From contig CAXXOU010000004.1 of assembly GCA_963677495.2 (NCBI GenBank), positions 768,001 through 832,000 of the forward strand: DNA of 64,000 bases, given 5' to 3'. Of the stretch, positions 4,642 to 53,479 are shown one piece after another (position 1 is the stretch's first letter; the number at the start of each line of letters is the position of its first letter). The position numbers and the translations under genes are program-made. The notes below the pieces were generated by a model that was not told where the DNA came from, made no database searches, and was given only the letters and a program-made list of their open reading frames with translations. Source of the stretch: Candidatus Cloacimonadales bacterium. Lineage in GTDB: Bacteria > Cloacimonadota > Cloacimonadia > Cloacimonadales > JAFGVF01.

Positions 4642-5766
4642 TTAATCTTTCTTCTCAAACTCCTTAATAAGCGTTTGAACTGCTTGTGTTGAAGTAATAT
4701 CTCCTGACATTAAACGATTTTCAATTTCCGGTAGCATAGCCTTAGTAGTAACATTATTATAGAAGGAATTCAGCAGATAGTCTTCCAGCATGAAATGCAT
4801 CCATTCCAGTTGTTGCTCTTTACGTCTGGACTCGAAAACACCACTCTCAGAGGTCTTATCTCTGAAATCCATTATACTATCCCAGATTTCGTTAACTCCC
4901 GTATTCTTAAGAGCTGAGCATGTCTTGGCAATTGTTTGCCAGCCATTGGTTGCGGGAGCGATATAATGCAGAACCTGATTGAACTCAGACTTAGTCATCT
5001 CAGCTCTTTGCTTGTTATCACCATCTGCTTTGTTAACAACAATCATATCAGCAATCTCAATAATCCCTTTCTTAATGCCTTGGAGCTCATCACCGGCACC
5101 GGCAATCTGTACAACCAGGAAGAAATCAACCATAGAACGTACAGTTACTTCTGATTGTCCTACACCAACAGTTTCGATGATTATAACATCAAACCCGGCA
5201 GCTTCGCAAAGTAAGATACTCTCACGAGTCTTTCTTGTAACTCCACCAAGTGCCCCACTAGATGGGGATGGACGGATAAAGCTCTCTTTCGCTCTTGAAA
5301 GATACTCCATTCTTGTTTTGTCACCAAGAATACTACCTTTACTTCTGGTACTACTGGGATCAACAGCCAGGACAGCCACTTTGTGACCCTTCTCTATCAG
5401 GTTCAAACCAAGTGTTTCAATGAGAGTACTCTTTCCTGCACCCGGCACTCCTGTGATTCCAATACGGATTGATTTACCGCTTTGAGGAAGTATCTTCTTT
5501 ATAAGCTCTTGAGCTTGCTGAATATGTTTGTCGGAATTACTCTCAATTAATGTAATAGCACGTGCTAGCACGATTCTATCCTGATTCATTATCCCATTGT
5601 AATAATCATCAACAGAGAGTTGGTTCCTTCGCACAGTAGGCCTGGTCTTTGTGTTAGAGTTTTTATATGGTAACCCCTCATGAGTGGATTTGACTCCCGG
5701 CATTACCTTAGTTGTGAACTCTTTACCGGCCTTTTCAGGAACCCATTCCGGTCTTTTATCTTTCAT
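4642..5766 (-). CDS. meaB: Methylmalonyl-CoA mutase-associated GTPase MeaB
   Basis: GITGVPGAGKST, AVDPSS..GSILGDKTRM, ETVGVGQSE, GDELQGIKKG, NKAD. Confidence 0.95.
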   Translation of the reverse strand: MKDKRPEWVPEKAGKEFTTKVMPGVKSTHEGLPYKNSNTKTRPTVRRNQLSVDDYYNGIMNQDRIVLARAITLIESNSDKHIQQAQELIKKILPQSGKSIRIGITGVPGAGKSTLIETLGLNLIEKGHKVAVLAVDPSSTRSKGSILGDKTRMEYLSRAKESFIRPSPSSGALGGVTRKTRESILLCEAAGFDVIIIETVGVGQSEVTVRSMVDFFLVVQIAGAGDELQGIKKGIIEIADMIVVNKADGDNKQRAEMTKSEFNQVLHYIAPATNGWQTIAKTCSALKNTGVNEIWDSIMDFRDKTSESGVFESRRKEQQLEWMHFMLEDYLLNSFYNNVTTKAMLPEIENRLMSGDITSTQAVQTLIKEFEKKD

Positions 5767-5979
5767 AGTTTATCCTTGAATGTATTGTATAAATATAGAT
5801 AAATACCTCCCAATTTCTGACAAGGAATTTCTTTCACCTGGTACGCGGACATCCCTGCTTGCACATTCCCCTCTAGCCAGTTAGGGTGACATATCAGGAG
5901 CAGTCACCAGTGCGAGTTTACGAGCTTGGGGAAATGCGGAATGCGGAACTTATACATTTCTTACTTCGGAGTCGCAATA

Positions 5980-6092
5980 AGTTGTTCGCCTATCGGCTTA
6001 CGAGCTCCTCCCACCGGTCGTCGGTTCCCCGAACTCCCGATGGTCGTAATGGTGACTGCTTTAGACTTCATTCATCTCCGCTCAGGGTGACA
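5980..6092. repeat. Partial copy of the palindromic element at 49206-49505
   Basis: AGTTGTTCGCCTATCGGCTTACGAGCTCCTCCC is identical to 49411-49443; ends CTCCGCTCAGGGTGACA as at 49490-49506. Confidence 0.85.
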
Positions 6093-6105
6093 TAGAAATC
6101 CAGTT

Positions 6106-6272
6106 CCATAGGTTGAAACCAATGGCTATTATAAGCTGACTCCTTCAGGGTTTCGAACAATGCATAAACGACATACAGGCAAACATCCTTACCCTAACAG
6201 GGTAACATTATAATAGCCATGGGCTTTAGCCCATGTGAATGTCATCCCAAAAACCCGACCCTAAAGGGGTCG
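6106..6272. repeat. Cluster of REP-like short palindromes
   Basis: Hairpins TTACCCT/AGGGTAA, CATGGGCT/AGCCCATG, CGACCC/GGGTCG; similar hairpins at 15317-15376. Confidence 0.6.
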
Positions 6273-6531
6273 CCCAACATCCTCATAACGCAATTGTTGT
6301 TTCATGCAAATGTTGTATTTAACAAAAATAATATATTTGACAAATAATACATAACATATAAAAGTCGTACATAAACAGAAAAGGAGGAATGCTTCTAACC
6401 CCTTGTTATGTGGGCACATGTTGTCCACCCTCAGTATTTATCATTTAAGGCAACTTTTACACAAAGTTTAATCAGGTCGTCGTTGTATTTACTCTGCGAC
6501 TACCGCCCACCTAGTACAAAGGAGTTTTCAA

Positions 6532-7146
6532 ATGATATATGAAATAACATGTAAGGAAAACGCTTGGATAGTCCCGGAACGGCTCAAACCGATTCTAATC
6601 ACGGAAGGCTTCAGATATGTGTTAGTAGCACTTAATACACCTTCCAAACGCATTAACTTGTTCAACTTCTTCTTTCAAAACCACACCCCACCGAATCTGG
6701 CAATCGATAAAACTAACTATGAGAAGCTCTTAGCTTTTGATAGCACATTAAACCAAAACTACAAACAGATTCAAGAGAAATCACACTTCTTTAAACTCCT
6801 GAATCTACTAAGCAAATATCAACGAAACTACAGATACCAAAGTAAAAGAAACTCTATCGTAGGAATGAAGTTTAACCATCACAGGTATTACCAAATCGTA
6901 TCTGTCTTACAGAAATATCTCTCCGAGTATTCAGGACAAGATGAGTACATTCTCACAATCAATAAATCACTACATAGCCTGATTCTTGCCACAATGTACG
7001 CCTTAAAACAGCAAGCCCCTATGTTCCATTCGCATCTGCAAAAATGCTTCAAACATGATTACTGGGTGCTCTATGAACCGACGTGTGAACCTGATTTCAA
7101 TCTGGTTATTAACTCAGTGCCTGATGGGCAGGGGAGGGGAGAATGA
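6532..7146 (+). CDS. Hypothetical protein, paralogue of 7143-7739
   Basis: 204 aa, RBS AAGGAG; shares N-terminal KPI..TEGF....AL..P.K.I and C-terminal P......K.F.....LY[ED]P with the next gene. Confidence 0.8.
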   Translation: MIYEITCKENAWIVPERLKPILITEGFRYVLVALNTPSKRINLFNFFFQNHTPPNLAIDKTNYEKLLAFDSTLNQNYKQIQEKSHFFKLLNLLSKYQRNYRYQSKRNSIVGMKFNHHRYYQIVSVLQKYLSEYSGQDEYILTINKSLHSLILATMYALKQQAPMFHSHLQKCFKHDYWVLYEPTCEPDFNLVINSVPDGQGRGE

Positions 7147-7739
7147 AATACGAACTTATCATAGGTAATGATCACTGGACTACTTCAGAATCAATAAAAC
7201 CTATCAAAAAGACAGAGGGTTTCTTCATCCTTGAGGAAGCTCTAACCCATCCCAACAAGGTAATTTCCATTACAAAGACTTTCCTTGCATATTACTTCCC
7301 GAGGTTATATGAGATTCCATATTGTGAAGTAACCCCGGGTTTCGGTACTGACTACTTGAATTCATGCTATAAGTTCGCAAAAGAGGAGCGACAAAACAGT
7401 TTATTTCTCTATAAGCAGTATATGCTCTATAGAGAGAAACTCGAACAATCAAGGAGAGTTTTATCAACTGTCGAAGCTGATATCTTTGCTGAACAGGTAG
7501 ATAAGATTGAAGAGATAATCTATAAATCTATAAATATCAATGACAATTTAGACAGCTTCATCAAAGAAGTTAATCATAAAGCATGTTGCTACGTAGTCAC
7601 TGCCCGAAACAAACTAAAGATCAAATCCCCAATCCTGTATGAATATATAATGAAGACATTCACCTTCGGCAGACTTATCCTGTATGACCCGAAGAAATCG
7701 AAAGGAATTGAACTGTCGATTCTCGAAAAGATAAACTAA
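7143..7739 (+). CDS. Hypothetical protein, paralogue of 6532-7146
   Basis: 198 aa, ATGA overlap with the upstream stop, followed by a terminator. Confidence 0.8.
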   Translation: MKYELIIGNDHWTTSESIKPIKKTEGFFILEEALTHPNKVISITKTFLAYYFPRLYEIPYCEVTPGFGTDYLNSCYKFAKEERQNSLFLYKQYMLYREKLEQSRRVLSTVEADIFAEQVDKIEEIIYKSININDNLDSFIKEVNHKACCYVVTARNKLKIKSPILYEYIMKTFTFGRLILYDPKKSKGIELSILEKIN

Positions 7740-7740
7740 C

Positions 7741-7765
7741 AAAAGCCCGAGAAATCGGGCTTTTT
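7741..7765. terminator. Bidirectional intrinsic terminator
   Basis: AAAAGCCCGA-GAAA-TCGGGCTTTTT between convergent genes. Confidence 0.85.
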
Positions 7766-7767
7766 AC

Positions 7768-7818
7768 AATGCTAAATGGTAAATGCTAAATGTCTGCACT
7801 TCGTGCAATTATGAATTA
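7768..7818. repeat. Degenerate 7-bp tandem repeat (AATGCTA type) with TGCAC/GTGCA hairpin
   Basis: AATGCTA AATGGTA AATGCTA AATGTC TGCACTTCGTGCA. Confidence 0.7.
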
Positions 7819-7833
7819 AAACACAAAAAACTA

Positions 7834-8964
7834 CTAAATTCGTTCTATAATTTTCATTTTATCTTTATCGAACTGGATGTACTCGAATGTTAAACCATTT
7901 AGATACTTGTTAAGATGATTTATATATTTCTTATCCTCAGCTGATGCCTGTACATTAGAAACTAAAACAAGCTTTTTTGTTTCTTGCACATTGGGATATA
8001 GACTATACTCTATTAATTGCCCAAGACTTTCTCTTATGCACATTCTAAGTTTTGGTAATACTTTGATTTCGTAAAAAGTCAGTTCATTGCTTTTATTAGG
8101 ATCTCTACTGATCAAGTCTATTCTTCTACCATTCGTATAACCTTCAGCTTCAACATTATTAATGCCATACTTTTTTTGCAGAAATGTTAAAAACGCATTT
8201 TGCAAGGCTATGTGATCATAACTGATTGTTATTGTTCTTCTTAATCCCGTTCGAGTTTTTTTAGGTATAGGTATTTCTTCTGTTGTTCCGTTAAAACCAA
8301 ATTTGTAGCGTTGAATTTGTTTTGTTTTTAGAAAAACGTTGACTTTTGGTGCAATCTTATCAAAGAGAATGTATCTATAGTTATTGAATAAGTTAAGTGG
8401 CAGTTTTATTGGTTCATCAAAAATAGTTATTGATTTCATAAAATTAAATCTAACATTGAGCAATTGCTTAGGCTTATTTTTATTTTTGGTTAAATAACTT
8501 CTACCTTTAGGGTTCTTAATATCACTCAAATCTTCCTTCATTTCCTCGAACCAATTTTTAGTTTTAAAAGTATTTAAGGCAGTCTTTGCAGTTATTTCGT
8601 CAATGACTTCTAAGCCACTAATTTCACAGATCAGTATAAATCTCTTTTCCCATTTGTTATATGTATAGAGAAGTAGATCGAATATTTCACCTACATGTAA
8701 ATTATGATTCTTTTCGGTATTAAATGCTTCAATAAAGCTATACTTAAACAATTCTCCATTCTCCTCAATAAGCATTCTCTTGTTTAACAACCACTCTTCT
8801 AGTCCAAAACCCCATTCATTTTCGAAATTTTTCTTTTTTACTTTTAGACCAGTTTCTTTATTAACAATAGAATAGATACCATCACTTTTCCCTTCTAATC
8901 CAGATGGTCTTTCCCAACCATTGTCATTCCAACAGATTCTTGCTAATCTTAACGGATTACCCAT
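7834..8964 (-). CDS. Hypothetical protein with C-terminal PD-(D/E)xK nuclease-like domain
   Basis: H..LQ...VEAE....RRIDL...TFYEIK.....IRESLGQLIEY; AT-rich. Confidence 0.7.
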   Translation of the reverse strand: MGNPLRLARICWNDNGWERPSGLEGKSDGIYSIVNKETGLKVKKKNFENEWGFGLEEWLLNKRMLIEENGELFKYSFIEAFNTEKNHNLHVGEIFDLLLYTYNKWEKRFILICEISGLEVIDEITAKTALNTFKTKNWFEEMKEDLSDIKNPKGRSYLTKNKNKPKQLLNVRFNFMKSITIFDEPIKLPLNLFNNYRYILFDKIAPKVNVFLKTKQIQRYKFGFNGTTEEIPIPKKTRTGLRRTITISYDHIALQNAFLTFLQKKYGINNVEAEGYTNGRRIDLISRDPNKSNELTFYEIKVLPKLRMCIRESLGQLIEYSLYPNVQETKKLVLVSNVQASAEDKKYINHLNKYLNGLTFEYIQFDKDKMKIIERI

Positions 8965-36400: not shown

Positions 36401-36663
36401 AAGTCACCTTTTACGAGGAGAGAATCACTAATGATTTCTTTATTAACTAATAGATATGCATCTGTGTTTTGTGATGGCACATAGTAGTTCATAGTTTCAG
36501 TAATCTCAGTTCCGATGAAGTAACCGGGTATATCACTTTCTGTAATAGAGAAAGGATCAACTCCAACAGGATAATCATTGCTTTCCCTAAAGCATCCGGA
36601 TAGTGTAAGTAAAAGTAGGCTTATATATGTCAGTTTCTTTATAACTACCAAACGAAACTCCAT
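33440..36663 (-). pseudogene. Large acidic repeat lipoprotein, split by a single frameshift at ~34490 (possibly an assembly error)
   Basis: Lipobox LSGC; internal repeats (HYTSSDGFLYFG, HYASVDNFIYFG). The -1 frame after 34500 reads DILESNDS...YSYSDGLLHLGIDR, in frame with ORF 33440-34396. Confidence 0.75.
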
Positions 36664-37880
36664 TATAGTTTGAATTTGTAACCTACTGTTCCAGTGTAGG
36701 CGTATGTATCATCATTAATAGTATATGATAAAGAGAAGATAAAGCTCTTCGGAGAATATTTGAGACCTAGACCATATGATAAAATAGGCTCATCATGGTT
36801 ATCTATAACATATCCAGTCGGTGAAACGTAAAACTCTTTGTCACCCCAAAAGACGTAAGCATTTGGAGTGAAATTATATGGCAAGTAGTAGATAAGATTT
36901 GAATGGAAAAGCCAATAATCATCATCCATATCTTCTACTTCATAATCTCTGATACTGCTACTTAACTCTACTTTAAGACCAATGTTATCAAGTTTAGTTT
37001 CATACCATATAGTGTTTTGAATTGTAGAAAGAATATCATAATAGAAGTATGAAAATGCATAACCCAGTCTATTATAGCCGTATTGATTGATAAACTCCTT
37101 CTGATACATAACTGAACCACCATAAGTGTCATATAACAACTTATAATCACCTGAAATGTATGTTAAATCGATACCTGATTTCCAACCGGAACCGATAAAC
37201 TTATAACCGAGACTGTAACTGTCACGTTTTGTATCATCTGATTCGAAGTGATTATATCTCATACTGATTAGATTTGTTCTCATAGTGATATGTGTAGAAC
37301 CAAAATAGGATACATTGTCATCATCAGAAGAACTGTAACCGGAATAGATTGATGTGAAAAAAGGCATCTTCTCAAGGTAATCCAATTTTTGAGATGCAAT
37401 ATAGTTATTACTATTCACTTTAAGTGCGTTCCTAAGATAACCTTCTGCCTTAGAAAGGTAATGTAGATCTATGTAGTTCATACCAAGACCAGTAAGCTCT
37501 ATTGATCGGTCAGCAGAACCAAGAATAGCTGTTTTATAATAGTGAATACTTTTAAAGTTATTACCTTCAAGGTAATTAATGTAACCTAAGTAACTTGCAA
37601 ATATTCTGTTGGGAGAACAGCATATAAGTGCAGTACCCGCATCGACTTTTGCTCTATCTAGATGTTTGAGAGCTAGTGAAGACTCTATTGCTCCAATATA
37701 TGCATTGATATTTGTACTGTCAGCATCAATAACATCGTAATATGCATTTCGAGCAGTAAGATACTGTTTATTTAGTAATAACTGATATGCTTTTTCAATG
37801 GAAGCATTAGCCAGCAATTGTAAGGGTAAAATCAGTATTATAAGAAAGAGACTATTTCTTAATAGCTGCTTCATATTCAC
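36663..37880 (-). CDS. Secreted TPR protein with probable C-terminal outer-membrane beta-barrel
   Basis: Signal peptide, TPR-like helices, then Tyr/Gly/Ser-rich alternating strands ending GYKFKL. Confidence 0.65.
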   Translation of the reverse strand: MNMKQLLRNSLFLIILILPLQLLANASIEKAYQLLLNKQYLTARNAYYDVIDADSTNINAYIGAIESSLALKHLDRAKVDAGTALICCSPNRIFASYLGYINYLEGNNFKSIHYYKTAILGSADRSIELTGLGMNYIDLHYLSKAEGYLRNALKVNSNNYIASQKLDYLEKMPFFTSIYSGYSSSDDDNVSYFGSTHITMRTNLISMRYNHFESDDTKRDSYSLGYKFIGSGWKSGIDLTYISGDYKLLYDTYGGSVMYQKEFINQYGYNRLGYAFSYFYYDILSTIQNTIWYETKLDNIGLKVELSSSIRDYEVEDMDDDYWLFHSNLIYYLPYNFTPNAYVFWGDKEFYVSPTGYVIDNHDEPILSYGLGLKYSPKSFIFSLSYTINDDTYAYTGTVGYKFKL

Positions 37881-38457
37881 TCAGATATTTACTTGATGGT
37901 GCATACTTCTTTACAAACTCATACTGAGTTTTAGCTTTCATGAAATCAGATGAGTATGTATAGCAACCAAGTAAGTAACATCTACTATCGATATGATATG
38001 GGTAGCGAGTTAGGATTTTAGTATAAACCTTTGCTGCTTTTGTCCAATCTCCTTTGAGGAAGAAAGCATAAGCTTTATAACCAAGTGCTGTGAAGTCATA
38101 TGGATATTTCTTCAGTACTTCATCTGAGTACTTAATTACTTTATCCCAGTCAGCAGTATAATAAGCAACAAGGTTTAAACCCTCTAATGCTTCAGTGGAT
38201 TTATCCATTTTATATGCTTTTTCATAGTAGTTCTTTGCAGATACATAATCAGCACTAAGATAGCTTAGCCAACCTAATCTAATGTTGTAAAATGCATTGT
38301 TAGGATCTGACTTAATTAGGGAATGCATAGCTTCTAGAGCTGCAGTATACTGATAGTTAGTCTCATAATTATATGATCTTGTTAAAGGATTCTCATTTTG
38401 GGCATAAAGAAAGCTCATCGCAATCAATACAACAACTAATATTATTATCTTCTTCAT
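37852..38457 (-). CDS. Periplasmic tetratricopeptide repeat protein
   Basis: Signal peptide; RLGWLSYL..DY..A..YY.KA TPR pattern. Confidence 0.82.
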   Translation of the reverse strand: MKKIIILVVVLIAMSFLYAQNENPLTRSYNYETNYQYTAALEAMHSLIKSDPNNAFYNIRLGWLSYLSADYVSAKNYYEKAYKMDKSTEALEGLNLVAYYTADWDKVIKYSDEVLKKYPYDFTALGYKAYAFFLKGDWTKAAKVYTKILTRYPYHIDSRCYLLGCYTYSSDFMKAKTQYEFVKKYAPSSKYLSEYEAAIKK

Positions 38458-39405
38458 CTATTCCTCCATAAGTTTTAAATTCTTACTTAGCTCTTCAGAA
38501 AACAATTTTGCTCCTAAAGCATTTAAATGATCACCATCTCCGAAACCTTTATCAGGTAATGGAAAACGCGAAAAATCTAGGTATTTAGCATTAAATTCCT
38601 GCTTAAGATGATCATAAACAACCACATGGTTTCGTTTAAAAGCATCCGGTATTTTATTGTAATAATCGTCGTGGACAGGAGTGTTTATAAGAATTATCTC
38701 TATATTGTTTTCGTTACACATACTGCAAATCTTTTTTACGTATGAATACATGAGTTCAGATATTCCTGCTTTTGCGCCATCACTATCATAATGTGCTTTC
38801 AATGACTGTTGTATTGTATCATTCGAAAGGTTACATGTATCATTATATCGATAATATCCACCGAATGGATAGTTTGCTATGTCCGGTTTACCATTGTGCA
38901 TAAGATAGAAAAACAGGTGCATGTTATTTGAAAAGTCGAAGGGTAATCCCCAATCATACTTAAGCTTAGTATATAACCAATCACCATCTTTCTTTGATGT
39001 AAAGATATTTTCTTGATCCGAAATAATCGGGTAATATCTGTTTAAAAGAACATTGCGTCTAACTCCCAACATCTCTTCATCATACAGTGTTGAGAAGTTA
39101 TGATAGGAGAAATTGAGCAGAACTCTTTCAGGTTTGCTGTACTTGAGGAAATAAGTTAACTTCACGTACGTTAGAAAGTAATTCTCACTGTTTTTCGATA
39201 GATTTACAGAGTCCTCGATAATATCAGGATCAATTGCACACTGAGTATGAGAATCTCCCATAATGAATGTTTTTTCATCCAAGGAGAAATACTTAGGATT
39301 ATAGATAGTTGGTAAGAACACAAACTTGTTCACTAAAGTTAATCCAATTATGAAAGCACTTGTAATCAGTAAAAAAATCAGTATGTATTTAAATATATTA
39401 CGCAT
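38458..39405 (-). CDS. SGNH/GDSL-like (DltD/AlgJ-like) membrane-anchored protein
   Basis: N-terminal TM helix, MGDSH, INTPVH, FGDGDHLN..GA; adjacent to MBOAT. Confidence 0.75.
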   Translation of the reverse strand: MRNIFKYILIFLLITSAFIIGLTLVNKFVFLPTIYNPKYFSLDEKTFIMGDSHTQCAIDPDIIEDSVNLSKNSENYFLTYVKLTYFLKYSKPERVLLNFSYHNFSTLYDEEMLGVRRNVLLNRYYPIISDQENIFTSKKDGDWLYTKLKYDWGLPFDFSNNMHLFFYLMHNGKPDIANYPFGGYYRYNDTCNLSNDTIQQSLKAHYDSDGAKAGISELMYSYVKKICSMCNENNIEIILINTPVHDDYYNKIPDAFKRNHVVVYDHLKQEFNAKYLDFSRFPLPDKGFGDGDHLNALGAKLFSEELSKNLKLMEE

Positions 39406-39407
39406 AG

Positions 39408-40802
39408 TTAGAATTGGAAATAGATGAATTGGTTCTCGTTAAAGATTCCAAAACAAAAGATTATAACAACGAGAGCACTTAGAATGAAAACACGTTGCAT
39501 AGGTTTTATTGTAGTAAACTTTGAAAGGTCTGTTTCAAACTTTAGATGAATCAATCCCATCAAAGCAATGAATACGAAACTAAGAACAAGTTCTGTCAAA
39601 GTTAGTCCCGGTAAAAAACCACCCCAACTAAGAGGTGATACAATATTTTTAAGAATATAACAAGCTTCAAACAATGAATCAGCTCTAAAGAATATCCAAG
39701 CAAGACTTACAAGTGTAAATGTTATAACTACTCCAAGGAATCTCGGAATCTTAAGATTAAATGGTTTTAAGATATTCCAAAGAATTATCATAACTCCATG
39801 GATTAAGCCCCAAATCATAAATGTCCAGTTTGCTCCATGCCAAAAGCCACTTAAAGCAAAAACAATAGCAAGGTTCAGGTATTTTCTTGGAATAGAAATC
39901 CTATTACCACCAATTGGAATATATAGATAATCTTTAAACCAAGCCGATAGTGAGATATGCCAACGTCTCCAGAACTCGTTAATATTATGAGCAATATAAG
40001 GAGATTTGAAATTTTCCAGGAGTCTGATACCCATCATCCTTGCAATACCTAATGCAATATCAGTATAACCACTAAAATCACAATAGATCTGGAAAGTAAA
40101 AAACACTACACCTATTATTAAGGGTAACCCGGAGTATGCTGTAGCATGTGAGAATACTTCGTCAGAGAAAAGTGCTAATCTATCAGCAATCACTACTTTC
40201 TTAAATAATCCAAAAATAATTCTTGAGATTCCAATCAAAAAATCATCACTTTCTATATGCTTTTTTGTTCTTAACTGGGGTAACAGATGACCGGCCCTTT
40301 CAATCGGTCCGGCAACCAGTTGTGGAAAGAAAGAAACGTATAAAGCAAAATACCCTAAATGTCTTTCCGCTTTAAGTTTTCTTCTATATACATCTATTGT
40401 ATATCCCATTGTCTGGAATGTATAGAAAGAGATGCCAACTGGGAGTAGAACATCTATGAATTTATACCCTTGAGGATATGCATCAGTAAATAGTCCAAGC
40501 AGACTCCCTGAAAGGAAGTTGAAATATTTAAAGAAGAATAGCAGTCCAATATTGGTAACTATACTCAAATACAGGAACAGTTTTTTAGTTCTCTCAGAAT
40601 TACTTGATTCTATCCTAATTCCTGCAATGTAATCAACAATAATTGATGTTACAATCAGAATCAGATAAGCCGGCCTCCAAAAACTATAAAAGAGGAAGCT
40701 TGCTCCAAGTAATAATCCCCATCTACCTCTTTGAGGTACAATGTGAAAAAGAATCAATATTACAGGAAGAAACAGGGCAAATTCCAAGGAATTAAAAAGC
40801 AT
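39408..40802 (-). CDS. MBOAT O-acyltransferase (AlgI/DltB-like)
   Basis: LPVGISFYTFQ, FFPQLVAGPIER, IYCDFSGY, FWRRWHISLS, SGFWHGA. Confidence 0.95.
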   Translation of the reverse strand: MLFNSLEFALFLPVILILFHIVPQRGRWGLLLGASFLFYSFWRPAYLILIVTSIIVDYIAGIRIESSNSERTKKLFLYLSIVTNIGLLFFFKYFNFLSGSLLGLFTDAYPQGYKFIDVLLPVGISFYTFQTMGYTIDVYRRKLKAERHLGYFALYVSFFPQLVAGPIERAGHLLPQLRTKKHIESDDFLIGISRIIFGLFKKVVIADRLALFSDEVFSHATAYSGLPLIIGVVFFTFQIYCDFSGYTDIALGIARMMGIRLLENFKSPYIAHNINEFWRRWHISLSAWFKDYLYIPIGGNRISIPRKYLNLAIVFALSGFWHGANWTFMIWGLIHGVMIILWNILKPFNLKIPRFLGVVITFTLVSLAWIFFRADSLFEACYILKNIVSPLSWGGFLPGLTLTELVLSFVFIALMGLIHLKFETDLSKFTTIKPMQRVFILSALVVIIFCFGIFNENQFIYFQF

Positions 40803-42946
40803 TATTCAGTTCTTTCGACCTCTATCAGGTTCTCTCCATTTTTATCTAAGCACATTCTTGATATACCGTTTTCCTGAGAAATCTCAATCGTTCCAGTATA
40901 CTTTCTAAAAACCTTGTTAAAGATTTTTAAGTTAATGAATGATTGAATTTCTAGAACTCCCTTATTGTCAACAGCTTTATAATTAGCTTCTGTTGTAATG
41001 AATCCGGGCATGAATGCTTTTAAGAAGAGAATTGATTTCTCCATGAATGGAGAATAGAAGATTGATAATGGTGGTTTATCATTCCACTCTATCGACTTAC
41101 CTTTGAGATAGGGGAGTCTTGAAAGCAGAATTGCAAATGCATGTAAGCATGTACATCTATTACCATAATAACTGAAACAGTTATAAATTCCTTCATAGAT
41201 TGAGAAATATATATATGATTTATTGTCACTGGTGATGCTCAGATTTCCTAATAAATCCACATTTACTTCCCAGTTTTCTTTGGTAGTGCCACTTGCGACC
41301 TTTTTATTGAATACATAACTATCTTTAACTTTAAATCTCAATAGGTCTTGAAGTGAGTAATCAGGGATTAAAGGAGAGATTAAATCATCTTTTAATGGAA
41401 TTCCATAAGGAGTGAACTCATAATTCATAGTATCTTGAGTCTTCTTATAATTTACAAGATATGACTTAAGAGTTGAGGATCCCGGTTCAGGGCCTAACTG
41501 AATATTGAAATGCAGATGTGGGACTTCTGATCGACCTGTATTACCAACTGAACCAATTTTTGTTCCCTTACCGATGTAATCACCTAATTTCAGGTTAATT
41601 GTTCCTGGTTTCAAATGTGCATACATTGAATAGATACTACCCCAATGATGTACAATAACGTAATTACCCCAGTTATCTGTAGTATTTATTTGTCCAATTG
41701 GATTATCAGGAACTCCATCTAAAACTTTTGCAACATATCCAGGGGCTGATGCTAATACAGGTTTACCGTAACAGAAATAATCATTAGCATTGATTCCTTC
41801 ATTACGATACTTTTTACCCTCTTTATCTTGCATCTCAAAGTCCCATGCATGTTTCCAAAGATCTTTGTGAGTAAACTCCCCATCGTTACCTTGAGTGATA
41901 ACCCATTCTCCACTAAAAGGTAAGGCAAACTGAGATGTACCGGTTTCATAGAAACGATCAATTCTTGAGTAATAGTACTCTAGGTTTCCTTCAGGATGGA
42001 AAGCACCATAGTCTATGCTATATGGGTTCTTATTCACCAATCTAAGTCGCATAGCATATACATAGATAAACACTGTTATGCAATATGGGAATGCAAAAGG
42101 TGGTACGAAAAAGTTATAAAGCATTGTCTGGAAAGAAAATGCTATTATAATACCAGTAATCCCTGCAACCAAAGCTATAAGGTATGAGTACCAACCTGGC
42201 ACAAAGAAAACCCCGCCAATAGCTATTGAAATGAGTATCAGGTTCAGGCTTGGGAATAGTATTTCACCTGTTGGAAAATTATTAAAAACAGTCATGAAGA
42301 TAAAACTCAAACTATAACCAACTAACGATAGTACAAATCCGATTCTAGTTGTTATCAAAAGAGCAATTGCAATTAAAGCTCCTGTCACTATATTGGGTTG
42401 AAAGAAAATACTTCCTAAACTCTTGAAGTATAGCTCAATGAATTGAGGAATCTCCAGTGATATAGGGAATATAAGTGCTCTTGCTTCACCTATTAGTGTA
42501 CCACCAATTCTCAAATAGAAGAAACTAAAGAATATAGCTATGAATGAGAATGACAGACTCATCGATGGGAAGTTTAAGTATCTCGTGATTATCGAATTCA
42601 ACGCAACAAAAGTCAGCATTGTTAAGATAGAACCTATTACAAGTAAGCTACAGAAGATAAGTGGATTAAATCCGCTTGATGGATAGAAGTAACCTAGTCC
42701 AAGTGTTACCAATAAACTGTTAAAACCTAATAGACCTGAACGACTCTCCCAACCTTCAAACTTAAAGATTCTAGCAAAAGTTAGCGATATAGTAACTCCA
42801 ACTAGTCCTGAAAGACCTGTCTTCCAGTCGATAAGGGTTGAGACTAGAATTAGAAATCCTACTATCCTTTCATTGCTGAAGAGGATAGTAGAATATGAAT
42901 TAAATACTGCATCAACTAATGCAGGAATCTTAAATTTTGCTTTCAT
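40802..42946 (-). CDS. Urea-transporter-family membrane domain fused to an M23 peptidase domain
   Basis: N-terminal TM region (GLLGFNSLL, FKSLGSIFFQ); M23 motifs H..LWKHAWDF, NWGNYVIV, YAHL, PHLHF. Confidence 0.8.
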   Translation of the reverse strand: MKAKFKIPALVDAVFNSYSTILFSNERIVGFLILVSTLIDWKTGLSGLVGVTISLTFARIFKFEGWESRSGLLGFNSLLVTLGLGYFYPSSGFNPLIFCSLLVIGSILTMLTFVALNSIITRYLNFPSMSLSFSFIAIFFSFFYLRIGGTLIGEARALIFPISLEIPQFIELYFKSLGSIFFQPNIVTGALIAIALLITTRIGFVLSLVGYSLSFIFMTVFNNFPTGEILFPSLNLILISIAIGGVFFVPGWYSYLIALVAGITGIIIAFSFQTMLYNFFVPPFAFPYCITVFIYVYAMRLRLVNKNPYSIDYGAFHPEGNLEYYYSRIDRFYETGTSQFALPFSGEWVITQGNDGEFTHKDLWKHAWDFEMQDKEGKKYRNEGINANDYFCYGKPVLASAPGYVAKVLDGVPDNPIGQINTTDNWGNYVIVHHWGSIYSMYAHLKPGTINLKLGDYIGKGTKIGSVGNTGRSEVPHLHFNIQLGPEPGSSTLKSYLVNYKKTQDTMNYEFTPYGIPLKDDLISPLIPDYSLQDLLRFKVKDSYVFNKKVASGTTKENWEVNVDLLGNLSITSDNKSYIYFSIYEGIYNCFSYYGNRCTCLHAFAILLSRLPYLKGKSIEWNDKPPLSIFYSPFMEKSILFLKAFMPGFITTEANYKAVDNKGVLEIQSFINLKIFNKVFRKYTGTIEISQENGISRMCLDKNGENLIEVERTE

Positions 42947-42949
42947 ATA

Positions 42950-44296
42950 TTATGATTTAAGATGTTCTGGGATTCTCTCTTTATGCTGGATATCATTAAG
43001 ATATTCACGCTCTCTTATGAGCTCAACATCACCCGTCTCAGTAATTAGAACAACATTAGGTCTATATTCAATAAACTGCATCCATTGTGTCACATTGTAC
43101 GCGCCTACCGGATGAATAATAACTTTATCATCAACATGTAGATCAGGGAAAACACAATCAGGTTTAACTACATCAATATTCATGCAAAGAGGTCCATAAA
43201 ATACAGTACTTCTGGAAGTGCCTGATAACGGTTGAGCAGGTTTTACTGTAAGGTTATACCACCAGGCTGTAATCATAATATTTACACCACCATCAAGGAT
43301 AACAGCACGTTGTCCGGTAGGTAAATCCTTCTTTCCAAGCACAGAAGAGATGCAATATCCGGCTTCTGAAACTAACACACGCCCGGTTTCCATAATGAGT
43401 TTTGGGTTCTCTTCTCTGGTAAATTGAGCTTCATTGAATGCTCTGCCAATAGCTGCAAAGTATTGCTCTGGATTTGGAGATGCAAATTCTCCCGGAGTAT
43501 ATTGGTTATGTAGTGTGTTTTTAGAAGCGAACCCGCCGCCTAAATCGATATATTCAACTACAATACCAAACTTTTCTTTTAACTGCATTGCAAGGTCTAG
43601 GAGTGCTTTAGCTGAAAAATAATATGCAGATGGTTCAAGCATGAAAGTACCTATGTGACAATGAAGTCCTACAATCTTTAACTTGCCACCTGATACAATA
43701 CGTTGGAGCGTTCGCATTGCTTCTCCATTTTCATAATTAAACCCAAATCTTTGCCATTGCGGATAAACTCTTGTATCCATGTTCACGCGAATAGCAACTT
43801 CAGGGGTCATACTTAGCTCTTCAGCAACTTCTTCAAGAAGAACAAGCTCATCCATATGATCTATATGAATCTTAGCATTCTCAGATACTGCTTTTAACAG
43901 GTCATCTTTACGCTTACCGGGACCATTGAAGATAATATCTTCACCCTTCTGTCCTAGACCTTTTGCCATATCGTATTCCATGATGCTAACAACTTCAGGT
44001 TTCGCACCTTCCTGATGGAAGATAGAGGAGATGGCTTGTAGGTAGTTAGTCTTATATGACCAGCTTATCTCTGAGTTAGGATAATACTTCTCAAGTTCAA
44101 CTTTCATTTTACGATACTTTTCTCTAATCGCATTCTCAGAGAAGACGATTACCGGAGAACCATACTGCTCTACGATATCATTTACAGGTACATTCTCTAT
44201 TCTATCCTGATAATTTGCTACGCTTGAGAATCCAAACTTGTTTGTCATCCCTACATCATTTTTTTCTATAAAAGGTGGGTTATATTTCTTCTTCAT
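42950..44296 (-). CDS. Fold-type III PLP-dependent decarboxylase (LysA/ODC-like)
   Basis: SYKTN (PLP Lys), IIFNGPGK, GLHCHIGT, IDLGGGF, ETGR, GPLCMNID, GAY. Confidence 0.88.
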   Translation of the reverse strand: MKKKYNPPFIEKNDVGMTNKFGFSSVANYQDRIENVPVNDIVEQYGSPVIVFSENAIREKYRKMKVELEKYYPNSEISWSYKTNYLQAISSIFHQEGAKPEVVSIMEYDMAKGLGQKGEDIIFNGPGKRKDDLLKAVSENAKIHIDHMDELVLLEEVAEELSMTPEVAIRVNMDTRVYPQWQRFGFNYENGEAMRTLQRIVSGGKLKIVGLHCHIGTFMLEPSAYYFSAKALLDLAMQLKEKFGIVVEYIDLGGGFASKNTLHNQYTPGEFASPNPEQYFAAIGRAFNEAQFTREENPKLIMETGRVLVSEAGYCISSVLGKKDLPTGQRAVILDGGVNIMITAWWYNLTVKPAQPLSGTSRSTVFYGPLCMNIDVVKPDCVFPDLHVDDKVIIHPVGAYNVTQWMQFIEYRPNVVLITETGDVELIREREYLNDIQHKERIPEHLKS

Positions 44297-44298
44297 AA

Positions 44299-45372
44299 TT
44301 AGTTTTCCTTGCTGTAGTGTAATTCTCCCTGACTGGAGATTGTTCCGAATCTATCGATTGTTGAGATTATATCTTCTGAATGTCTAATAAATATTGTACC
44401 TGCTTTGTACTCTGTCATTGGCTCCACTTCTTTATCGAGAGCTTTTAAAAGGCAAGCTGCCGGAAGGTTTTGTCCTGCTCCTGATGAAAGTCTTATCCAG
44501 GCAGGGAAGCGAGGATTAATCTCAATAATAAAGATTTCACCAGCACCATTCTGAATAACTTCGAGCTCTGCCGGTCCTCGCCAGTTCAGAATTCTTATAA
44601 CTTGATGAGTAAACTCAGTTAAAGCCTGATTCTCAATCACAACACCACCAAACCCTTTACCCTTATCGGTAATTATAAGCTTGCGTTGCGGTATCATACC
44701 AAGTACTCCACCTTCACCATCACCAACAAGTGAGACATTGAATTCATCGCCAATCACTTTCTCCTGCACGATTATTGGCAGTCCCCATTTAGCTTTAAGT
44801 CTGGCAAAGACATCAAAAGCTTCGTCAATTGTACACACCTCGTATGCTTCGTACAATCTTCCCTTCACAAAGAACGGGAATGCTATTGTAGTTACAATAT
44901 TATACAACTCTTTAGCATCTGCACAGAAGAAGGTTTTTGGAACTTTGATTCCAAGCTCTCCAAACTCACGGTTAAGCCTTGTCTTATCTCTGGCAAGGAA
45001 CTGCTCTTCTGTTGGTAAGTAGAAGCTAATCCCTCGTTCTTTCAATTTATCTTCAAGTCTAATATAGTTGATTATCTCAGAATCAAGCGTAGGGATAATT
45101 ACATCTATCTTAGTTTTACTCAATATGTAATCAAGACGAGTAAGGAATATCTCTGAGCCACCGGAAGGGAAAGGCATCAGATAGATCTCATCAGCTAAAT
45201 CGTCAACAAAGATTCCCGCTTCAAGTGCATCATAAACTAGTGCTACTATTTTTCCTTTGAATCCCGCATCACGTAAACATCTGATTACGGGAGTGCCGGG
45301 TTGAGGGTTATCTCCGGTCTTTAGACCGGTAACAGCTACTGTTATGTCTAAACTACTTAAATCAATTTGCAT
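44299..45372 (-). CDS. ATP-grasp ligase
   Basis: IIPTLDSE, FPFFVKG, IVQEKV.GDE, ELE, IIEINPRFPAW. Confidence 0.85.
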   Translation of the reverse strand: MQIDLSSLDITVAVTGLKTGDNPQPGTPVIRCLRDAGFKGKIVALVYDALEAGIFVDDLADEIYLMPFPSGGSEIFLTRLDYILSKTKIDVIIPTLDSEIINYIRLEDKLKERGISFYLPTEEQFLARDKTRLNREFGELGIKVPKTFFCADAKELYNIVTTIAFPFFVKGRLYEAYEVCTIDEAFDVFARLKAKWGLPIIVQEKVIGDEFNVSLVGDGEGGVLGMIPQRKLIITDKGKGFGGVVIENQALTEFTHQVIRILNWRGPAELEVIQNGAGEIFIIEINPRFPAWIRLSSGAGQNLPAACLLKALDKEVEPMTEYKAGTIFIRHSEDIISTIDRFGTISSQGELHYSKEN

Positions 45373-45373
45373 A

Positions 45374-45619
45374 TTACTTCACCAAATGAAGGTTTTTAAG
45401 TTGAGTTAAGAAGTATGCAACATCTCTGTTCAGGTTTTCTTCTGTAACTTCATATTCTGACAGTATTTTTGCTTCAATTTCAGTGTCAGATAGGCCTGAT
45501 TTCAAAAGAGATATAATTGTTAAAGCCATATCATTACAATTATAAGATAGCCCTGTTGTAGGGTCAAAAATAAAGCCATTATCGCTAATAGCTAGTTTGT
45601 TTAAATTTGTTACGTCCAT
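45374..45619 (-). CDS. Stand-alone PqqD-family / RiPP recognition element protein
   Basis: 81 aa; GFIFDPTTG.SY.CN.....I..LL.......I...I..EYEV......RDV..FL.QL....L. Confidence 0.85.
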   Translation of the reverse strand: MDVTNLNKLAISDNGFIFDPTTGLSYNCNDMALTIISLLKSGLSDTEIEAKILSEYEVTEENLNRDVAYFLTQLKNLHLVK

Positions 45620-50273: not shown

Positions 50274-50624
50274 ATGACTCTGAGAGAACTAGTTTCGATA
50301 CTTGACGCCGAAGTATTGACTCCATCTGCTAACCTTGATGCGGAAGTACCATGTGCTTTTAGTTGCGATTTGATTAGTGATATCCTAATGTGTACACAGG
50401 AATCTACTCTTTTGCTTACCGGTCTAACTAATCCCCAGGTGATTAGGCTATCTGATATGATTGACTTAGCCGGTATCGTATTTGTTAGAGGAAAGAAACC
50501 AACAGACGAGCTCGTTGAAATGGCAAAAGAGAGAGAGTTAGCTTTGATTTCAACCCAACATTCAATGTTTATGGCAAGTGGAGTACTTTTCAATGAAGGA
50601 CTCAGAAGTTGTAAGATAAAGTAG
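50274..50624 (+). CDS. DRTGG domain protein
   Basis: AFSCDLISDIL, LLTGLTNPQVIR, IVFVRGKKP. Confidence 0.85.
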   Translation: MTLRELVSILDAEVLTPSANLDAEVPCAFSCDLISDILMCTQESTLLLTGLTNPQVIRLSDMIDLAGIVFVRGKKPTDELVEMAKERELALISTQHSMFMASGVLFNEGLRSCKIK

Positions 50625-50628
50625 AATT

Positions 50629-51123
50629 ATGGCAGAATATTTAAAAGTAAATCCCGCATATCAAGAGAGAGAGAATGAGATATTCTCTACCGATAGAACA
50701 CCGGAGATAACATTAGAATTTGATATTCTCGAACATGATTTTGTTAACTCAGGAAAGGGCTCAGCTGAACTAAAGCTGACAATTAAACGTTTAGGTGTTG
50801 ATCCTGCAATAATGCGTAAAGTCGCTGTTGCAGCGTATGAAGCTGAAATCAATATTGCTGCTCATTCCAGGGGTGGAACAATGACCAGTAATATATATCC
50901 CGACTATGTGCACATAGTTTTTGAGGATCAGGGTCCCGGTATTGAAGACTTATCCAAAGCGATGACTCCAGGTTTCTCTACTGCTATTGAATTAGTTAGA
51001 GAGATGGGTTTCGGAGCCGGATTAGGTTTGCCGAACATAGATAGAAACTCAGATATTATGAGATTGAACTCAGAAAAGAATTCCCGAACAAGATTGGACG
51101 TAGTAATATTCTTTCAAAGTTGA
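50629..51123 (+). CDS. Anti-sigma / RsbT-like Ser kinase (HATPase_c)
   Basis: YEAEIN..AH, EDQGPGI, GFSTA, GAGLGLPNI. Confidence 0.88.
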   Translation: MAEYLKVNPAYQERENEIFSTDRTPEITLEFDILEHDFVNSGKGSAELKLTIKRLGVDPAIMRKVAVAAYEAEINIAAHSRGGTMTSNIYPDYVHIVFEDQGPGIEDLSKAMTPGFSTAIELVREMGFGAGLGLPNIDRNSDIMRLNSEKNSRTRLDVVIFFQS

Positions 51124-51131
51124 AGGTAAAT

Positions 51132-52394
51132 ATGGAAGATAAAAGATACTATCACGGATTTGAGGTAGTAAGAGAAAGATGTACCGGTTGCACTGCATGT
51201 GTGCGTGTTTGTCCTACAGAGGCGATGCGCGTTAGGCATGGCAAAGTTGTTATTGATGCGAATAGATGTATTGATTGTGGAGATTGCATAACTGCCTGCA
51301 AATTCAATGCATTGGTTCCAAAACCGGATGGTCTTGAAAAATTAAAAGATTTCGATTATAGAATTGCAATTGTTACATCAGCTTTTGCAGGCCAATTCTC
51401 AGCGAATATCTCTTATAAGGAGATATTGGCAGCTGTAAAAAAACTTGGTTTTGATGAAGTGATTGAAGCTAGTATGGTTACTGATTTTATGGTGAAACTT
51501 ATTAGAGAATATGTGCGAGAAAATAAGCATATAAGACCTATCCTGTCAAGTAACTGTCCGGCTGTAGTGAGGTTGATACAGGTGAGATTCCCTTCATTAT
51601 TGCCAAACCTTCTATTGCTAGAGTCTCCTATGGGTATTCTAGCTAATTACTGTAGGGAGAAGGTTGTGAAAGAGATGAATATGGATCCTGATAAAGTAGG
51701 TATTTTTAACATAGTTCCCTGTTTAGCGGATGTAACTGCTACTCATCAACCTGAAGGCTCAAAGGAACGTTTATATGATGCTGCTTTCTCAATAACTGAT
51801 ATCTATAACGAAGTTAAACAGATTCTTAATTCAGGAGTTGAGCTTGATACTGATTTTGAAACCTATGAATCAGGTTTAGCATGGACACTTTCAGGTGTTG
51901 AAGCTGATTTAGTTGATTGTGACGATATACGAACACTCTCTGTTAATGGTATTGAGAATGTTAAAGATGTACTTTCGAAGGTTGAAGATCACTATCTTGA
52001 TCAATATGATTACATTGTTGTAAGAAACTGCAAAAATGGATGTGTTGGTGGAGCATTAAATCCGGAAAATCCATTTGTAGCAATGAGTAGGATAAAGAAG
52101 CTTTCAAAAGAAGCTGAACATCATGATATTGATGATTCCGGCTTTAGAGAACTTTATGAACAGGGTGAGTTTGCAGTTGCAGCTCTTAAACCTAGGTCTA
52201 TGATGAAACTTGATCAGGATATAAAGGCAGCACTGGCAAAGATGAGAAAGATTAATGAGATTCTTACAGAGTTACCGGGTCTTAACTGCTCTGCTTGTGG
52301 GTCTCCCAATTGTGAAAGCTTAGCTGAAGACATAGTTCAAGGTAAAGCTACAGTAGATGACTGTATAATTCTATATAAACAGACAAAGGAATAA
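51132..52394 (+). CDS. [FeFe]-hydrogenase-like protein (putative sensory type) with 2x[4Fe-4S] and C-terminal FeS domain
   Basis: CxxCxxCxxxCP and CxxCxxCxxxC, SSNCPAVV, VPC, NCKNGCVGG, LPGLNCSACGSPNC; alternative TTG start at 51120. Confidence 0.85.
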   Translation: MEDKRYYHGFEVVRERCTGCTACVRVCPTEAMRVRHGKVVIDANRCIDCGDCITACKFNALVPKPDGLEKLKDFDYRIAIVTSAFAGQFSANISYKEILAAVKKLGFDEVIEASMVTDFMVKLIREYVRENKHIRPILSSNCPAVVRLIQVRFPSLLPNLLLLESPMGILANYCREKVVKEMNMDPDKVGIFNIVPCLADVTATHQPEGSKERLYDAAFSITDIYNEVKQILNSGVELDTDFETYESGLAWTLSGVEADLVDCDDIRTLSVNGIENVKDVLSKVEDHYLDQYDYIVVRNCKNGCVGGALNPENPFVAMSRIKKLSKEAEHHDIDDSGFRELYEQGEFAVAALKPRSMMKLDQDIKAALAKMRKINEILTELPGLNCSACGSPNCESLAEDIVQGKATVDDCIILYKQTKE

Positions 52395-52397
52395 ATT

Positions 52398-52742
52398 ATG
52401 GCTATTAATGTACAAACTCTTATACAGAATATTAGAATGACAAATCTTACTCCTGATATAGATGCAGAGAAGATTGAGATTGAAAGTGGTTATGTTTCAG
52501 ACCTTCTATCTGATGTAATGGGCTCAGCTCAGGAAAACCAGATATGGATTACTATTATGCGTCACTTAAATACTATTGCTGTAGCTTCAATGACAGGTAT
52601 ACCAGTAATCGTTTTTGCAAAAGATATTATCCCTGAACAATCTGTTATTGATAAAGCTAGGGAAGAGGGAATTATTCTTCTTACAAGTCCTCTTACTGTT
52701 TTCGAACTTGCCGGGAAGATTTATACTCTAATCAATAGTTAA
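52398..52742 (+). CDS. DRTGG domain protein
   Basis: GYVSDLLSDVMG, WITIMRHLNTIAVAS. Confidence 0.85.
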   Translation: MAINVQTLIQNIRMTNLTPDIDAEKIEIESGYVSDLLSDVMGSAQENQIWITIMRHLNTIAVASMTGIPVIVFAKDIIPEQSVIDKAREEGIILLTSPLTVFELAGKIYTLINS

Positions 52743-53479
52743 TGAGATTTTTTAAAGCAGATTTGCATCTGCATACAGTCCTTTCACCCTGTGGGGGTTT
52801 GGAGATGTCTCCTATTGCATTGATTGACGCTGCTATTGAAGCAGGCTTGGAGATAATAGCTGTAACAGATCATAATACCCTTAAAAATTGTAGAGCATAT
52901 ATTGAGAAGGGTATCGAACAGGGGATCACTGTTCTGCCTGGTGTTGAGATTCAGACTGCTGAAGAGATTCACTTGATAGGATTGTTCCCCAATCTGGATG
53001 TAGCTGAACAATTTGACCAACAAATCTATGACTCATTACTTCCAATTGAGAATAATCCTGATTTCTTTGGTGATCAGGTTATTGTGGATGCGGATGAGAA
53101 CATTGTGGGAATAGAAGATAGAGCATTGATTAACTCCTCAATGTGGTCATTTGATGAGGCTGTAGAAAATGTGAGATTGAATGGTGGAGTTTGTTTCCCC
53201 GCTCATGTTGATGCTACTACATATTCGCTTCTAGGGCAGTTGGGTTTTGTGCCACCTGACCTGGAACTCATGACGTTAGGTATCAGTGCTAAGTGTAAAG
53301 TTGATCGTCTTCTTGAAAAGTATCCTTTTGTAAAGAGTTTTCAGCTAATACGCAATTCTGACTCACATTACTTGAATCAGATAAATATTGGATATAATGA
53401 ACTCTACATAGAGTCTGCTTCCTTTGATGAAGTAGCACAGGCTATTAGAAAGACTAACTCACGATATATCAAGCAATAA
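52742..53479 (+). CDS. PHP domain phosphoesterase
   Basis: DLHLHT.LSPC, AVTDHN, GVE, EEIH, PAHVD, NSDSH. Confidence 0.9.
   Translation: MRFFKADLHLHTVLSPCGGLEMSPIALIDAAIEAGLEIIAVTDHNTLKNCRAYIEKGIEQGITVLPGVEIQTAEEIHLIGLFPNLDVAEQFDQQIYDSLLPIENNPDFFGDQVIVDADENIVGIEDRALINSSMWSFDEAVENVRLNGGVCFPAHVDATTYSLLGQLGFVPPDLELMTLGISAKCKVDRLLEKYPFVKSFQLIRNSDSHYLNQINIGYNELYIESASFDEVAQAIRKTNSRYIKQ

Follow-up and report, generated by a model that had tools for sequence, protein, structure and literature searches.

The RRE encoded in this cassette very probably binds the decarboxylase's own Tyr-x-x-Pro-x-Ile tail in the way that a lasso RRE binds its leader, because the tail copies the lasso docking signal and co-varies with the RRE. 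An earlier note on the window (the whole stretch of DNA analyzed here, 64,000 nucleotides) had proposed that the RRE docks on the enzyme itself, and this proposal is supported by motif conservation, the RRE pocket, co-variation, a complex model, and the finding that no small precursor is conserved.

The peptide singled out in that note (MKKKYNPPFIEKNDVGMTNKFG) indeed corresponds to the first 22 codons of the 448-residue decarboxylase ORF; its strand, left unstated there, is the minus strand (Table 1). The genes follow one another in the order RRE, ATP-grasp, decarboxylase, and urea-transporter/M23 fusion. There are 37 nt between the upstream uvrC and the RRE, with core gaps of 1 nt (to the ATP-grasp), 2 nt (to the decarboxylase), and 3 nt (to the channel). 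The decarboxylase start lies 2 nt past the ATP-grasp stop and has AAGGA 9 nt ahead of it. Of 69 related loci, 63 have a chosen start that overlaps the ligase stop or sits at most 15 nt away.

Table 1. Features of the cassette, with positions in the window
Feature	Position	Strand	Basis or remark
Fold-type III PLP decarboxylase, 448 aa	42950..44296	-	Pfam/NCBIfam profiles, alignments; closest is FslC
N-terminal decarboxylase tail resembling a leader (residues 1-22)	44231..44296	-	Sequence and structure model
Recognition motif Tyr5-x-x-Pro8-x-Ile10, lasso register -17/-14/-12	44267..44284	-	Sequence
Lys20, putative acyl acceptor; at +15 relative to Tyr5, in the register of lasso Thr(-2)	44237..44239	-	
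ATP-grasp ligase, CPS-like/ATPgrasp_Ter type	44299..45372	-	
Stand-alone PqqD/RRE, lasso-B1 type	45374..45619	-	PF05402
RRE Asp66 codon	45422-45424	-	Pocket residue
Urea-transporter-like membrane protein fused to M23 peptidase	40802..42946	-	
TPR protein, usually next after the channel gene	37852..38457	-	
TPR-containing protein, accessory; from its sequence, probably an outer-membrane protein	36663..37880	-	No Pfam match
MBOAT plus SGNH-like pair, local insertion in the cassette	38458..40802	-	

The nearest relatives of the locus are Cloacimonadota, and the cassette is common, being present in 159 of 401 sampled genomes of one Bacteroidota order. Among the 182 loci with room, the pair of ATP-grasp and Orn/DAP/Arg decarboxylase was found in 179 and the RRE lay directly upstream in 174. 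Five of the eight exceptions were searched genome-wide and all five had an RRE. In three it lies beyond an insertion; in the other two, which are split genomes, it sits on another contig together with the ATP-grasp, away from the decarboxylase. The MBOAT/SGNH pair was rejected as a core member, as it is present in 2 of 79 related loci, the two closest. Some loci depart from the usual layout: L265:395-3061 and L267:1293-3997 consist of RRE, ligase, and decarboxylase, and the 2.2 kb that follow contain no channel gene, and at L028:4712-7744 about 1.8 kb of other DNA interrupts the ATP-grasp gene. Elsewhere in the window (50274-53479), DRTGG-like, anti-sigma kinase-like, Fe-S hydrogenase-like, and PHP genes are clustered, presumably after the manner of hydrogenase sensory modules.

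The tail had been described as an extension ahead of a LysA-like fold. It is indeed an extension, since FslC and LysA align only from residues 31 to 37 onward and the Pfam PLP domain starts at residue 56. In the AlphaFold2 monomer, the core had a mean pLDDT of 91.8, residues 11 to 25 were below 50, and the first ten were at about 62, with no secondary structure up to about residue 30; the tail is predicted to be disordered. The motif [YFW]xxPx[ILV] was found near the start of 23 of the 2,220 ORFs of at least 150 aa in this genome (the decarboxylase is alone among them in having also a Lys at +15), so that the motif is frequent by chance and its conservation serves as the test. The channel protein also begins with a comparable motif, which 1 of 73 homologues has and which was set aside as chance.

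The YxxP conservation that the earlier note had wished to see checked was found throughout. The motif was present in 115 of 120 protein matches (the other 5 were without an N-terminus), and [YF]xxPx[ILV] was kept in all 253 genome loci with a complete N-terminus. The latter belong to a set of 260, including some duplicates, that comprised 79 related loci, 150 fetched with tail-less queries, the window, and 30 recounted where they repeated earlier loci; most had been found with the decarboxylase core alone as query, the tail being omitted. The seven loci dropped were two LysA-like genes, two fragments, and three whose N-terminus was truncated, frameshifted, or unanchored. When 130 diverse proteins were placed on a tree, 26 of the 41 rows of one clade carried the motif (4 of the 15 motif-less rows are fragments), as did 2 of the 89 rows outside it.

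The comparison group lacking an RRE is thin. The 3.6 kb of contig L278 carry a ligase and a decarboxylase of the family but no RRE, and this decarboxylase begins directly at the core. In eleven phage loci, where the decarboxylases are distant (24 to 29% identity) and the ATP-grasps are others, neither the tail nor the RRE was matched, and PF05402 was found in none of the 5 of those phage records searched whole. The phage loci L348-L358 (ca. 4900-8000) have a tail-less LysA-like decarboxylase beside one or two ATP-grasp genes and a conserved gene of 241 to 249 aa, with packaging-like genes nearby, which we take to resemble a DNA-modification cluster.

The RRE matched PF05402 with 36.9 bits (cut-off, 23.4) and fell below every NCBIfam subfamily cut-off; its nearest solved relatives were the lasso RREs TbiB1 (E 4e-10) and TfuB1 (E 1e-9). 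In LppB (PMC13381572), N33, Y60, D70, and F74 contact the leader, with D70 hydrogen-bonding the leader Tyr, and these residues align without gaps to N29, Y56, D66, and F70 of our RRE. With conservative swaps counted, the pocket is kept at Asn29 in 225, at Tyr56 in 228, at Asp66 in 165, and at Phe70 in 227 of 228 cases. No natural RRE fusion was seen among the loci, and the search for RREs fused into longer proteins returned one chimeric-looking fragment, which is weak evidence of absence.

Tail residue 5 and RRE position 66 vary together. In 228 distinct pairs (of 232), Tyr/Asp was found 165 times, Tyr with another residue 12 times (always Asn or His at position 66), Phe/Asp never, and Phe with another residue 51 times. 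The corresponding figures for 63 metagenome pairs, a few of which may share organisms with the previous set, were 55, 2, 0, and 4, plus 2 Trp/Ala; they derive from 80 metagenome loci, 17 of them without tail or RRE sequence. Across 284 loci, Tyr5-Asp66 was the top of 65,819 inter-protein column pairs (RRE columns against tail, decarboxylase, and ligase columns), with a z of 14.1, the next being 8.9. RRE position 66 shared 8 of 11 tail changes when the decarboxylase tree was used and 6 of 10 with the tree of the ligase, ranking 1 of 666 and 1 of 665 columns, respectively. A strict independent-pairs sign test on strongly supported branches gave 5 same, 0 opposite, and 2 unchanged on the decarboxylase tree (median p 0.0625, not significant) and 3 pairs on the ligase tree (p 0.5, not significant); the strict test agrees with the co-variation in direction yet falls short of significance. 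The column-pair scan and the trees gave no tree-supported co-variation of the tail or the RRE with the ATP-grasp. The pair formed by tail residue 18 and ATP-grasp residue 289 (z 10.7) was rejected, as it separates one large clade from the rest and has no tree support.

Modeling of the RRE with the tail, also called for in the earlier note, placed the RRE on residues 2 to 16 of the enzyme. The complex of RRE and full-length enzyme scored 0.76, and the best of three controls scored 0.00; the mark for such models is reached by 116 of 157 solved pairs and 2 of 215 mismatched pairs, counts that hold only roughly with our own alignments. The runs had at least 63% of contacts in common and a partner pLDDT of at least 83, and the modeled RRE contacted only residues 2 to 13 and 16 of the 448, through the canonical cleft. 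The model possibly passes from its likeness to the solved lasso RRE-leader complexes. The co-variation, as read from the aligned sequences, is docking evidence independent of that likeness.

Alternatively, the target of the RRE might be a free precursor from another locus or, if the RRE acts as a winged-helix protein, DNA, leaving the tail as a structural part of the enzyme. Two published observations speak for this: in the fosfazinomycin cluster, YxxP precursors of 21 to 22 residues once escaped automatic searches (PMC13622209), and RRE-like folds include DNA-binding false positives (PMC7470986). Since short YxxP precursors can escape detection in this way, we scanned ORFs of 8 to 70 aa. The loose motif was present in 289 of them in the 79 loci plus 22 kb of the window, and the recurring motif-bearing ORFs were rejected as precursors because they were antisense or off-frame shadows of conserved genes. 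A genuine precursor, named beforehand as the finding that would speak against docking on the enzyme, did not emerge: none was conserved in the 79 loci plus the window, and a profile of the tail matched the decarboxylase only, genome-wide (99%-complete genome). There are 137 intergenic short ORFs with the loose motif in the genome, 5 of them with a ribosome-binding-like site, which were not individually excluded and count in favor of a free precursor; none is similar to the tail. The genome also holds a single PqqD above the cut-off, and a precursor or DNA target would leave the Tyr5/Asp66 co-variation unexplained. We consider this alternative very improbable. During the genome-wide search, a duplicated 35-aa motif ORF was rejected as a precursor, as it overlaps in antisense the start of a duplicated long gene. 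In addition, a dispersed intergenic DNA repeat yields near-identical short ORFs, in tandem with ca. 247-nt spacing at G000:C3:79668-80519 and with further copies at C1:925117, C1:928633, C2:51467, C4:659006, and C4:841043.

Both enzymes appear equipped for catalysis. Lys82, His214, Glu303, and Cys371 of the decarboxylase are intact, and the PLP Lys and catalytic His/Glu/Cys are kept in 282 to 284 of 284 loci. Its scores fell below the cut-offs for LysA (TIGR01048, 214 bits against 297.9) and the rhizoferrin decarboxylase FslC (NF041039, 237 bits against 500); FslC (7kh2) was the closest in sequence and fold (E 4e-61, TM 0.81). The catalytic Cys is followed by Met372 in 283 of 284 loci; LysA has there a Glu that binds the far amine of the substrate. 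Given that role, Met372 would suit a substrate whose far end is an amide and not a free amine. The ATP-site Lys residues and the E-x-N-x-R motif of the ATP-grasp are invariant (284/284). Fold and sequence searches with it returned generic CPS, biotin-carboxylase, RizA, and PylC matches at 12 to 19% identity, and for that reason its substrate is not called. A search of a plasmid collection returned one archaeal LysA and nothing else. With the decarboxylase profile, no canonical LysA was found in the G000 genome, which has one other fold-type III decarboxylase (C4:17959-19119, ornithine-decarboxylase-like). One 871-aa protein (P0131) is an ATP-grasp/decarboxylase fusion, possibly a read-through artefact, with the motif kept internally and Arg at +15.

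The tail carries a second conserved element, Lys20. A Lys at +15 from the tail aromatic was found in 310 of 319 distinct loci; the remainder had a Lys within +14 to +17 (5 loci), an Arg (3 loci), or neither (1 locus). In 27 divergent tail-bearing representatives, fragments included, position +15 was Lys in 15, Arg in 4, and another residue in 8. Lasso leaders have a Tyr at -17 and a conserved Thr at -2 (PMC10368454). With Tyr5 set at -17, Lys20 falls at -2 and Gly22 at +1, and by this analogy the stretch from Lys20 to Gly22 would match the segment that lasso RREs offer to their partner enzymes. Lys20 lies beyond the RRE footprint predicted by the complex model.

Downstream of the decarboxylase, 131 of 159 long loci had room for the channel count, and these showed the channel followed by M23 in 115, the channel followed by a sirtuin in 13, and no channel in 3. 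M23 and sirtuin never occurred together in one locus, and the 13 sirtuins had intact motifs. Because the sirtuin loci form a single clade, the swap counts as one event. One of them, L281, has no Lys at +14 to +17. Sirtuins strip acyl groups from lysine, and urea transporters have both termini in the cytoplasm. We also noticed a variant cassette (L260, L263, L264, L268, L273, L274, L280, L283, L287, L289, L306, L309, and L311) composed of a large TPR gene, an RRE, two ATP-grasp genes, the decarboxylase, and then, where the sequence reaches, urea transporter and sirtuin as a fusion or a pair. The RRE often begins with a Cys/His-rich extension, the second ATP-grasp gene is often degenerate, L287 has the two ATP-grasp genes fused, and L273 adds a GNAT domain.

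Taken together, the Lys20 register, the RRE-ligase pairing, the catalytic residues, Met372, the M23/sirtuin swap, and the precedent of CtaD/CtaF suggest that the tail lysine may replace a carrier protein. The RRE, docked also on the ATP-grasp, would present Lys20 to this ligase, making the tail a built-in carrier arm. The ligase would join the side-chain carboxyl of an Asp- or Glu-type diacid amino acid to the epsilon-amine of Lys20, and the PLP site would strip the alpha-carboxyl; as with CtaD/CtaF, there might be several such rounds. Finally, the channel-fused hydrolase (M23, or the sirtuin in one clade) would release the product at the membrane so that it can pass the channel. We hold this whole chain, from docking through ligation and decarboxylation to release, tentatively and give it slightly less than an even chance. 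The full version, in which the RRE-loaded tail replaces an acyl-carrier protein, an (oligo)amide of beta-alanine or 4-aminobutyrate is built up on Lys20 through ligation/decarboxylation cycles, and the arm is reused after M23 or the sirtuin has released the product for export, is rather doubtful. No carrier-protein (phosphopantetheinyl) domain was found among the 12 neighboring proteins in the window. CtaD/CtaF build beta-alanine chains only on a carrier, and the logic of butirosin is alike (PMC7183216, in part). Judging from the homologous sequences, the frequent lack of Lys20 in divergent homologues is a point against the carrier step; by analogy, so is the annotation of FslC, the nearest solved decarboxylase, for free, small N-citrylornithine. 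The origin of the sirtuin swap in a single event, the Lys-less sirtuin locus L281, and the absence of tree-supported co-variation between tail or RRE and the ATP-grasp weigh on the same side.

Much of this evidence would also suit a non-covalent tether, in which the RRE holds the tail and the ATP-grasp together and an FslA/FslC-like amide intermediate (of a diamino or diacid amino acid) is channeled free, residue 20 being a mere basic contact. All of the RRE-tail binding evidence applies equally to it, as do the closeness of FslC in structure, the Arg in place of Lys in 3 loci and 4 of the 27 representatives, and the motif kept in the P0131 ligase-decarboxylase fusion. However, a tether has no need of a Lys conserved at 99% and at fixed spacing beyond the RRE footprint, nor of a lysine deacylase in the hydrolase slot, and P0131 (again, a possible read-through artefact) keeps the tail although tethering would then be redundant. 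We regard the tether as fairly unlikely. A regulatory tail, which would gate or block the decarboxylase through residue 20 as a mimic of a basic product, with RRE binding, acylation/deacylation, or cleavage near Phe21-Gly22 as the switch and the channel fusion as a sensor, is improbable. It would account for the Lys or Arg at +15 and the lasso-like register with Gly at +1, and one sirtuin fusion carries a GNAT acetyltransferase while two such loci have an acetyltransferase-like gene upstream; on the other hand, a lasso B2-type protease is absent among the neighbors, and the monomer model leaves the tail off the enzyme. As for the two uses of docking put forward in the earlier note, an adaptor coupling decarboxylase and ATP-grasp or modification of the tail, Lys20 and the M23/sirtuin swap slightly favor modification over a pure adaptor.

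An RRE is taken as a sign of a peptide natural-product cluster, and for many RREs no precursor lies nearby. That a leader can sit on a large enzyme is a possibility overlooked by mining tools, and the carrier arm, if true, would be categorically new. No description of the cassette was found in the open literature, subscription papers and most supplements lying outside that scope. It is not mentioned in the main text of PMC7470986 or in the main text and one supplement of PMC12710340 (its larger data sets are separate), and the part of PMC10849128 available has nothing specific to it.

Among known systems, the N-citrylornithine decarboxylase FslC/FigC likewise has Met in place of the LysA Glu next to the catalytic Cys, but here there is no siderophore synthetase among the 12 neighboring proteins, and ATP-grasp, RRE, and channel are found instead. 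The pairing of an ATP-grasp ligase with an Orn/DAP/Arg-family decarboxylase is that of closthioamide (CtaD/CtaF/CtaE) and butirosin (BtrJ/BtrK/BtrI, as named in PDB titles), in which a tethered amino acid is ligated, decarboxylated, and religated (PMC7183216). There, the tether is a phosphopantetheine thioester on a separate carrier protein, whereas the one proposed here would be a tail lysine presented by the RRE. As in fosfazinomycin biosynthesis (PMC13622209, in part), where FzmZ and RREs provide a YxxP peptide scaffold for a small non-peptide product, the peptide would serve as a scaffold; unlike FzmZ, a free 22-mer modified at its C-terminus, the 22-mer here is fused to a pathway enzyme. 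The closest parallels are the lasso and LPP RREs TbiB1 (5v1u/5v1v), TfuB1/FusB1 (6jx3), PbaB1 (9x90), and LppB (9x8z), which are likewise stand-alone (PMC13381572 and PMC10368454). Their RRE-leader pairs share with ours the [YFW]xxPx[ILV] motif, the Asn/Tyr/Asp/Phe pocket, the Asp-Tyr pairing, a conserved residue at +15, and a Gly at +17, and differ in that our leader is the N-terminus of a 448-aa enzyme with Lys, not Thr (or Ile/Val), at -2. Unlike in lasso clusters, the B2 protease and lasso cyclase are absent among the 12 neighboring proteins, and there is no conserved short precursor. On sequence grounds, the system is one that appears to work like lasso leader recognition yet is not a lasso system.
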